This document shows, one piece after another, positions 25,854-26,727 of a stretch of DNA of 33,205 nt. The stretch lies in IMG/VR virus record IMGVR_UViG_2617270988_000009; one strand, 5' to 3'. The stretch is from a virus (taxonomy: Duplodnaviria; Heunggongvirae; Uroviricota; Caudoviricetes). The position numbers and the translations under genes were made by a program. The notes beneath the pieces were generated by a model. The model saw only the letters and a program-made list of their open reading frames with translations, made no database searches and had not been told where the DNA came from. How positions within the stretch are numbered: the stretch's first letter is position 1; each line of letters starts with the position of its first letter.

Positions 25854-26727
25854 CATGGTGTTCACAGAACACACAGTTACCGGACACATCAGTTTTCCAT
25901 TCGTCCCCCGGCAGTACAGGCTTCCCGTCTGACGGGATAGCCTGAAAAAACACAGAAAATTATTTGTTATAATTAATATAACTTACTCAAAAAAAAGCGA
26001 CGAGAAAATCAGCATCAACGAGCAATAAGCGCCAATACGTGATAACAAATGGCAGCCATATTTATCTGCAGTATAAGCAATGGACAGGATAACCACACCA
26101 GAAACCGTCAGCATAAAATCCATTTGAACTTCCCCGGACAAAATCGACTCATCTAAAGATTTACAGCTCTTTTTATTATCAATATGTTAAAAGTAAAATA
26201 AACAGATGTTCAATAATACGAATACAAAAACGTGCTGAAAATCAATGAATCCATTTCTGTGTTATCAATTAATAGTGATAAACATCCGGCTTCTTCCACC
26301 ATCGCACCGGACCAGCGACCATGAGGGGACAACGCCGCGCTCCGTTAACGCGGTAAACCCCGGTGTGTATCGTTTTTGATTATCCCCGCACACTCGCGCA
26401 GAGGATTCTCCCGGTCGGGCTGCGGTCTCTGTTAATGCAGGAATACGGCGACAATACCGCGCATGAATAATAAGGTCGCTCAACACACTGGCTGTAATGC
26501 AGCGGATACCATGCGGCATTTAGCGGCATTCATCGTACACTCAACGGTTAGCTCTTCATTCGTGGCATTCACCTGAAAGGTCCTGGAGTGTAATTGCGTA
26601 CATTTACCACTGAACGAACCTTCAACAAGAACACGACCACGCTGCAAAATACGGAACGGAATTGTTCCCTGAAAAGGCTTTACGGTTACCAATAATTTCT
26701 TCATGCATTCTCCGAATAACAAAAATA

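Follow-up and report, generated by a model that had tools for sequence, protein, structure and literature searches.

Several kinds of described system come close to the locus reported here. Morons of the bor type, such as bor of lambda and borD of DLP12, are small genes that are present in some phages and absent from other, collinear ones; bor itself is a lipoprotein gene read from the strand opposite to the late genes, with its own promoter. RNase III hairpins (T7 R1.1-type sites, the lambda N-leader and sib) are located between cistrons in long phage transcripts. The put RNAs of HK022 are lambdoid stem-loop RNAs that act in cis and in an orientation-dependent manner; put sites, which comprise two stem-loops within ~70 nt and modify RNA polymerase, follow early promoters closely. 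Type I toxins (Hok/Gef, Ldr, TisB, ZorO) are small, very hydrophobic, prophage-borne peptides encoded in AT-rich DNA behind long leaders. The window analyzed in this study is a DNA stretch of 33,205 nt (IMG/VR record IMGVR_UViG_2617270988_000009; Caudoviricetes), which is an Escherichia coli lambdoid prophage of the Shiga toxin (Stx) phage type with HK97-style packaging genes. The interval between its Rz and DUF3950 genes contains three independent units: an intact gene for a protein of 74 amino acids (aa), a conserved 182-nt non-coding element that is a candidate structured RNA, and an AT-rich insert carrying a hydrophobic open reading frame (ORF) of 46 aa. In the account proposed here, the interval is where the lysis cassette meets the DNA-packaging genes, with the three units read on the late (minus) strand and no broken gene among them. 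We hold this account as a whole, including the RNA fold and the suggested roles, with moderate confidence.

The 182-nt element is located at positions 26283..26464 on the minus strand, where a covariance-model match of 206.8 bits was obtained. Local alignment delimits a block of ~180 bp (26464..26283) with sharp edges and unrelated flanks. Copies of the element were found in 398 phage records (385-398, depending on the search), including lambda, 21, 933W, BP-4795 and ES18. Of the 5426 complete E. coli genomes, 4143 (76%) carry it, in a total of 10,803 places, with up to 11 copies per genome, nearly all of them unannotated. The lambda copy (46867-47034) lies between bor and lambdap78, and that of E. 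coli K-12 is carried by DLP12, between borD and ybcV. The upstream neighbor of the element varies: BP-4795 and VT2-Sakai have Rz at this place, 21, 933W-type phages, lambda and DLP12 have bor, and ES18 and 2B8 have a Rha-like gene; the 74-aa gene is absent from all of these. On the other side, the element abuts DUF3950 in phage vB_EcoS-569R3. In all of the ~12 annotated contexts, the element is found on the late strand, downstream of Rz or of bor-type cargo and upstream of the packaging genes or cos. The first-pass annotation of the window had described the interval as territory of bor-like cargo, and the location of bor between Rz and the element in lambda, 21, 933W and DLP12 agrees with this. 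A genome-wide cross-species pattern scan returned only 7 loci, mainly from Escherichia, and no distant homologues that could strengthen covariation. In one IMG/VR viral contig, two copies of the element were observed ~950 bp apart (5056..5236 and 6006..6186 of the fetched locus).

The same DNA had been taken for coding sequence in the first-pass annotation. Two overlapping minus-strand ORFs in different frames, at 26480..26722 and 26265..26519, are indeed present, but they do not form one gene split by a frameshift, as had been proposed: the first is complete, and the second (26265..26519, minus strand; 84 aa) is a chance open frame over the conserved non-coding element. The latter ORF is not annotated by the Prokaryotic Genome Annotation Pipeline (PGAP), which places nothing over 26265..26479. 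Among 89 distinct copies of the element, 13 lengths were found, distributed over every class modulo 3. Stop codons are scattered through the copies, which differ by indels of 1, 10 and 17 nt; no frame is open in all 89, and that of the second ORF is open in 39 of them. Since the lengths occupy all classes modulo 3, the indels are not confined to triplets and no frame is open throughout, the element is, as judged from its sequence, non-coding.

The sole family match of the 84-aa ORF is PHROG 6954, labeled "Rz-like spanin" (E = 2e-13). This family was built from coding sequence (CDS) calls laid on the element itself, namely NP_050547.1 of VT2-Sakai (1179..1439 of the fetched locus) and YP_009187371.1 of VT2phi_272 (1483..1728 of the fetched locus), and in both phages the true Rz gene is located upstream of the CDS bearing this label. 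In phage 21, lambda and K-12, whose records are carefully curated, no gene is called over the element. A spanin identity for the 84-aa ORF was rejected: it has no Pfam match, its frame is not conserved, and a genuine Rz/Rz1 pair lies upstream. The "Rz-like spanin" label in RefSeq phage records and in PHROG 6954 is a propagated mis-annotation.

Evidence on folding was obtained from two alignments: A1, a structure-blind MAFFT alignment of 28 representatives, and A3, in which 96 copies were aligned to a covariance model built from A1, and which leans towards that model. The predicted structure, on the minus strand, consists of six helices. P1 (element positions 8-14/93-99) is a 7-bp long-range stem and P2 (20-26/79-85) another 7-bp stem, inside which lie two small hairpins, P3 and P4; P5 is a variable hairpin whose closing GGG/CCC pairing is invariant, and P6 a 3' hairpin whose loop contains the invariant sequence GGAAGAA. 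The element would thus fold into a long irregular stem (P1/P2) capped by two hairpins, followed by a variable hairpin and a 3' hairpin with an invariant purine-rich loop. RNAalifold applied to A1 recovered P1, P2, P3, P4 and P6. With P5 added, 95.6% of the cells of A1 were paired, compared with 32-57% when the partners were slid by 1-3 columns; eight pairs changed on both sides, and none of 500 shuffles reached the observed values. In A3, 97.6% of the cells were paired and 11 pairs (53 cells) carried double changes, values again reached by none of 500 shuffles. Slid controls of the two alignments gave 1-10 double-change pairs with 32-57% pairing. Covariation in A3 was found in four of the five pairs of P5 and likewise in four of the five pairs of P6. 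The P6 stem TCCGG/CCGGA is replaced by CTCGA/TCGAG in ES18 and by TCCTG/CAGGA in the 2B8 group, and P5 is represented by at least six unrelated stem sequences, with a hairpin formed at the same place each time. Among non-Watson-Crick cells in register, G·U combinations greatly outnumbered A·C (290 vs 16), whereas the slid registers were unbiased (2088 vs 2460); this excess points to an RNA on the minus strand, i.e. the strand of the late transcript. The position and orientation of the element suggest that it is transcribed within the late operon. About 60 columns are invariant from ES18 (Salmonella) to lambda.

A number of observations weigh against this fold. The minimum free energy (MFE) of the window copy is no lower than that of shuffled sequences (z = -0.31), and folds constrained to the consensus lie 11-21 kcal/mol above the unconstrained MFE. 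The covariation term of RNAalifold is small (-1.2 of -27 kcal/mol), P1 shows one-sided changes only, and in a mutual information analysis of all column pairs (with average-product correction) clade signatures dominate and the helices are not at the top. The copies fall into a few mosaic lineages with an effective number of ~19, so that the independent compensatory events perhaps number ~8-12, and alignment A3 was fitted to the covariance model. Taking both sides together, we consider it probable that the element folds as an RNA. Inspection of the alignments gave no support for a pseudoknot in which the P6 loop would pair with the P3-P4 linker. A short ORF starting in the P6 loop (MVEE...; AUG GUG GAA GAA...) was likewise rejected, as lambda-type copies have no start codon there. 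Some copies do contain a start codon in this loop (26283..26310), and the annotation of phage 21 starts a 45-aa CDS at it (1654..1791 of the fetched locus).

The first of the two overlapping ORFs contains an intact gene (26480..26704, minus strand; PGAP WP_000735655.1) for a 74-aa protein (MKKLLVTVKPF...). Its ATG is at 26704, 24 nt past the Rz stop codon, and a GGAG ribosome-binding site (RBS) is located 5 nt upstream of the start. The protein matches PHROG 2571, a family of unknown function (E = 2.8e-28), and has 66 relatives, from E. coli and Salmonella, among 5.8 billion proteins. The full-length relatives are 69-79 aa long, down to 56% identity, with 19 invariant columns; a few are longer, one of 125 aa bearing an unrelated PF08410 domain, and the second frame is not reached by any of the 66. 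Among 1.84 billion representative proteins, a profile search retrieved mostly stand-alone relatives of 70-82 aa, along with a few weak matches inside large repeat proteins, in which Pfam scans gave no informative domain. The AlphaFold2 model of the protein (pLDDT 90.7) comprises seven beta-strands and one short helix, has no signal peptide and begins its first beta-strand at residue 2; it produced no significant fold match (best E = 0.38 in the PDB and 0.08 in BFVD). The gene is taken as real because the length of its homologues is conserved down to 56% identity and the structure model is confident. No match was found in Pfam, NCBIfam or PADLOC, and a PilZ-like identity suggested by the appearance of RxxxR and SxSG motifs was dropped since Pfam gave no match. 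The protein is thus predicted to be an orphan late-operon cargo with a small all-beta (beta-sandwich) fold. That no function can be inferred for it counts against our account of the locus.

The 74-aa gene is far less widespread than the element: it was detected by tblastn in only 28 phage records, compared with 385-398 for the element, and is missing from the BP-4795, O104:H4 and SHP24 loci. It resembles the bor-type morons in being small, in its presence or absence between collinear phages, and in occupying the slot between Rz and the element. In contrast to bor, it lies on the late strand directly behind Rz and has no promoter-like site of its own, and the encoded protein lacks a lipobox, a signal peptide and a match to the Bor family. 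A Bor/Iss lipoprotein identity was rejected for both the 74-aa and the 46-aa proteins, neither of which has a corresponding Pfam or NCBIfam match. The 74-aa gene would be translated from the Q-dependent late transcript, giving a small soluble beta-sandwich protein encoded in the slot that bor occupies in lambda.

Two cargo slots can be distinguished at this junction, one being the bor slot with the 74-aa gene. Unlike bor, the island with the 46-aa ORF occupies the second slot, which is bounded by the element and the DUF3950 gene. This AT-rich, moron-like insert (25823..26276, unstranded) reaches the 3' end of the DUF3950 gene. Its base composition had been noted before and was reproduced, with a GC content of 0.32-0.41 across ~25800-26300 compared with ~0.5 on both flanks. 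Coverage over 141 fetched element-bearing loci falls from ~70-130 to 10-12 between 25823 and 26276, and the island is missing entirely from phage vB_EcoS-569R3. It was found in 734 of the 5426 E. coli genomes, including O157:H7, O104:H4 and O55:H7 strains; all but one of these islands are at least 95% identical, the divergent one being that of strain SHP24 (76% identity). The left edge of the island lies inside the last ~10 codons of the DUF3950 gene (25803..25853), and the DUF3950 C-termini differ, with 61 aa here and 66 aa in 569R3. In the passages of Juhala et al. (2000) quoted in PMC4104026 and PMC2629481, morons are defined as extra DNA present or absent between collinear phages, with their own promoter and terminator, and expressed from the prophage. 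Both the island and the 74-aa gene are present or absent between otherwise collinear phages in this manner.

The island carries the 46-aa ORF MDFMLTVSGVVILSIAYTADKYGCHLLSRIGAYCSLMLIFSSLFFE (MDFMLTVSGVV...) at 25983..26123 on the minus strand. A small minus-strand ORF had been reported at this place in the first-pass annotation; its existence is corroborated, while its end, given as 25980, was 3 nt off (26123..25983, 46 codons plus stop), and it had not been missed by annotation, as PGAP already calls it (WP_000347013.1). The product has two hydrophobic segments in the hydropathy profile (residues ~3-19 and 29-46) around the polar loop DKYGCHLLSR. Its homologues are confined to E. coli, and no family match was found in Pfam, NCBIfam, PADLOC or PHROGs. 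This ORF is conserved: it is intact in all 14 fetched island loci, in one of them with a GTG start, and the SHP24 island retains a 45-aa version MGLMLTIAGVIVLFIACNADKYGYPLLSRIGAYCALILIFSSLFF with the same start and the same RBS (GGGGAA), the two ORFs being ~81% identical. The single indel of the SHP24 ORF is in its last codons, and the frame still ends at the same place. The two versions differ by 12 synonymous and 13 non-synonymous substitutions, giving a ratio of non-synonymous to synonymous rates (dN/dS) of ~0.28, and the replacements are conservative (V/I, S/A, L/I).

Upstream of the 46-aa ORF, a sigma-70 promoter-like site, TTTTCA-17-TATTAT (26213..26241, minus strand; 9 of 12 consensus positions), is located ~85 nt from the start, and a -10-like hexamer (GATAAT) is also present in the divergent SHP24 island. 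A 35-nt block (26169..26203, unstranded) at the beginning of the predicted 5' untranslated region has 100% identity in the two variants of the island and is overlapped by a plus-strand promoter-like site (26160..26188). No convincing terminator was found in the island. A hairpin at 25920..25943 was dismissed as an intrinsic terminator, as it has no U-tract on either strand; it is an imperfect 8-bp structure (GGCTTCCCGTC...GACGGGATAGCC) between the convergent DUF3950 gene and 46-aa ORF, and is not conserved in the divergent island. We propose that the insert was acquired separately, probably with its own promoter, and that it would encode a two-helix inner-membrane peptide of 46 aa.

Other explanations of the locus have to be set against these results. 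If 26265..26722 were one gene of ~150 codons disrupted by a frameshift, i.e. a pseudogene, the 40-nt overlap of the two same-strand ORFs in different frames and the 84 open codons of the second frame would be accounted for. However, the full-length homologues of the first ORF have 69-79 aa and the longer ones do not run into the second frame, the second segment contains non-triplet indels and is open in only 39 of 89 copies, and PGAP marks no pseudogene at the locus. The DNA of the second ORF is present in ~400 phages without the first ORF, so the two halves do not always occur together, and among homologous loci no gene was found to span both frames; because of this separate occurrence and the homologues that never span both, the two ORFs are independent, the outcome named in the first-pass annotation as refuting its proposal, and a split gene is extremely improbable. 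The element itself could instead serve at the DNA level, as a linker for exchange of lysis and packaging modules or as a protein-binding site, with its hairpins incidental. Both of its edges are sharp recombination junctions with unrelated flanks, over most of its length it keeps its sequence instead of covarying, with P1 and a large part of P2 nearly invariant, and the missing thermodynamic signal and the mosaic clade blocks that dominate mutual information would suit such a role. Passive homology nevertheless leaves the pairing-preserving substitutions unexplained (11 pairs with 53 cells changed on both sides), as well as the unrelated sequences that have taken the place of P5 and likewise fold into a hairpin; the 290:16 bias of G·U over A·C is strand-specific and would be meaningless for duplex DNA, and ~60 invariant columns from ES18 to lambda are not expected of a mere linker under neutral drift. 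We consider this explanation rather unlikely. A third view is that the element is cut from the late transcript as a trans-acting or protein-binding RNA, e.g. a sponge or decoy, an anti-defense RNA or a packaging cofactor. It is an autonomous module whose neighbors vary on both sides, which argues against control of one adjacent gene, it contains invariant single-stranded stretches of the type used for recognition (AUAAUCAAAAACGAU; P6 loop GGAAGAA), and it adjoins the packaging genes with a length of ~180 nt, similar to that of the phi29 pRNA. Against this stand the absence of a conserved promoter upstream and of a conserved terminator downstream, the lack of any outstanding target complementary to the P6 loop within the window, the fact that cosmids (lambda cos vectors) are packaged without this region in cis, and the lack of any experimental hint; a trans-acting RNA is improbable on this balance.

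For the AT-rich island, the reading as a gene for a real membrane peptide competes with two others. The 46-aa ORF may be a spurious frame, any function of the island being non-coding: AT-rich DNA readily yields frames rich in F, I and L, the homologues are found only in E. coli and are almost all at least 95% identical, the ORF is less well conserved than the 5' block beside it, and it has neither family nor experimental support. The dN/dS estimate, moreover, rests on one diverged pair with 25 substitutions, which weakens the case for a peptide. This is countered by the 76%-identical island, in which frame, start and RBS (GGGGAA) are retained, the indel is confined to the last codons with the same end, and the replacements are conservative at a dN/dS of ~0.28; in addition, the change from ATG to GTG keeps a start codon. 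We regard a spurious frame as a minor possibility. The same low probability is given to a type I toxin-antitoxin-like arrangement, with the 46-aa peptide as a membrane toxin and an antisense RNA arising from the invariant 35-nt block. Like type I toxins, the product is small (<60 aa), very hydrophobic, prophage-borne and AT-rich in its coding DNA, with a long predicted leader (~85 nt), and the 35-nt block is 100% conserved, compared with ~81% identity of the ORF; this block and the opposite-strand promoter-like site within it (26160..26188) are compatible with type I antisense control, as far as can be read from sequence. Unlike most type I toxins, which have a single helix, it has two hydrophobic segments, and searches of Pfam, NCBIfam and PADLOC matched it to no toxin family, Hok/Gef included. 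No antitoxin RNA was identified, no terminator defines an antisense RNA, and promoter-like matches in the island are no commoner than in shuffled sequence, which also speaks against the promoter suggested for the ORF itself. A real small membrane peptide is the likely interpretation of the 46-aa ORF.

Returning to the element, it is the fixed landmark of the lambdoid lysis/packaging junction and most likely a folded RNA domain inside the late transcript. Within such a domain, a cis-acting processing or stability site, e.g. an entry point or barrier for RNase III or RNase E, would make the fate of the packaging and head mRNA independent of what happens to the lysis mRNA. This role is favored because the genes on both sides vary, neither a promoter nor a terminator is conserved, and the location between lysis and packaging genes is fixed; it has no direct support, which counts against it, and we put it forward tentatively, with low confidence. 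The broader proposition, that lambda and most lambdoid phages possess in this element a functional RNA not described before, which either controls the processing of the late transcript or acts in trans, is somewhat better placed, though still short of an even chance. As in RNase III sites, P1 and P2 together form an irregular ~14-bp duplex with an internal loop, and the element has a fixed intercistronic position between gene blocks in a long phage transcript. It differs from those sites in being far larger (182 nt, six helices), with long invariant single-stranded stretches; it has no sequence similarity to them. Like the put RNAs, the element is a lambdoid, orientation-dependent stem-loop structure that would act in cis, but it is located ~3 kb into a late operon already antiterminated by Q.

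Searches for a known identity of the element were negative. With relaxed thresholds, no match to Rfam 15 was obtained for the copies from the window, lambda, ES18, 2B8, VT2-Sakai and BP-4795, the best scores (≤22 bits) being at chance level. A description of the element was not found in the full-text literature, which is a weak negative, given the incomplete coverage of subscription journals. On visual comparison, a resemblance to boxB (nut) or to ops was rejected. The anti-sRNAs AgvB and AsxR and the Pas small RNAs (sRNAs) were also rejected, as they map elsewhere and their Rfam models do not match; they lie near PR', Q and stx rather than at the lysis/packaging junction (PMC4104026; bioRxiv 10.64898/2026.05.13.724894).

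The late genes of the window are on the minus strand, in the order lysozyme (28926..28393), an Ant/Rha-like gene (28119..27424), a 43-aa ORF, Rz, the interval studied here, DUF3950, HNH endonuclease and terminase. The 43-aa hydrophobic ORF MSDKLIMLAKGLCVIVGISFSLMLVVLFLSITWMALTSAGLVG (27198..27329, minus strand), located between the Ant/Rha-like gene and Rz, is a PGAP hypothetical (WP_001280927.1) and has no match among NCBIfam or PADLOC families. Rz, the i-spanin gene (26728..27186, minus strand; Pfam Phage_lysis, E = 1.5e-39), has Rz1 (26975..26769, minus strand) embedded in it. The DUF3950 (YlcI-YnfO family) gene is on the plus strand (25668..25853; Pfam DUF3950, E = 7.9e-20, also NCBIfam and PGAP) and is followed by the minus-strand genes for the HNH endonuclease (25626..25261) and the small terminase subunit (24971..24408). 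A SASA esterase gene is located further right, as judged by position and by comparison with a near-identical prophage. At the far end (32698..33205, minus strand), the sRNA STnc100 (132 bits) and then three tRNA genes were detected, cargo of the kind that Stx-like prophages usually carry downstream of Q. The region 25600-27300 has near-identical copies in hundreds of complete E. coli genomes.

The genes for the 74-aa and 46-aa proteins are routine phage cargo, already listed as hypotheticals by PGAP. The unexpected result is that the supposed second half of a broken gene is a very widespread element, unannotated or mis-annotated, which is probably a structured RNA and is also present in lambda. 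Few conserved sequences that lack annotation are as widespread in E. coli. For annotation, this means that the "Rz-like spanin" entry (PHROG 6954) should be withdrawn and that the locus should not be called a pseudogene, while the lysis/packaging junction of Stx and other prophages, with its two cargo slots, can be reliably recognized by the element. If the RNA reading is true, the element would have been overlooked for decades because it was unannotated or mislabeled as a spanin gene. Should it prove to be a functional RNA, it would be an unrecognized control element in the best-studied phage late operon, where it is directly approachable by lambda genetics.

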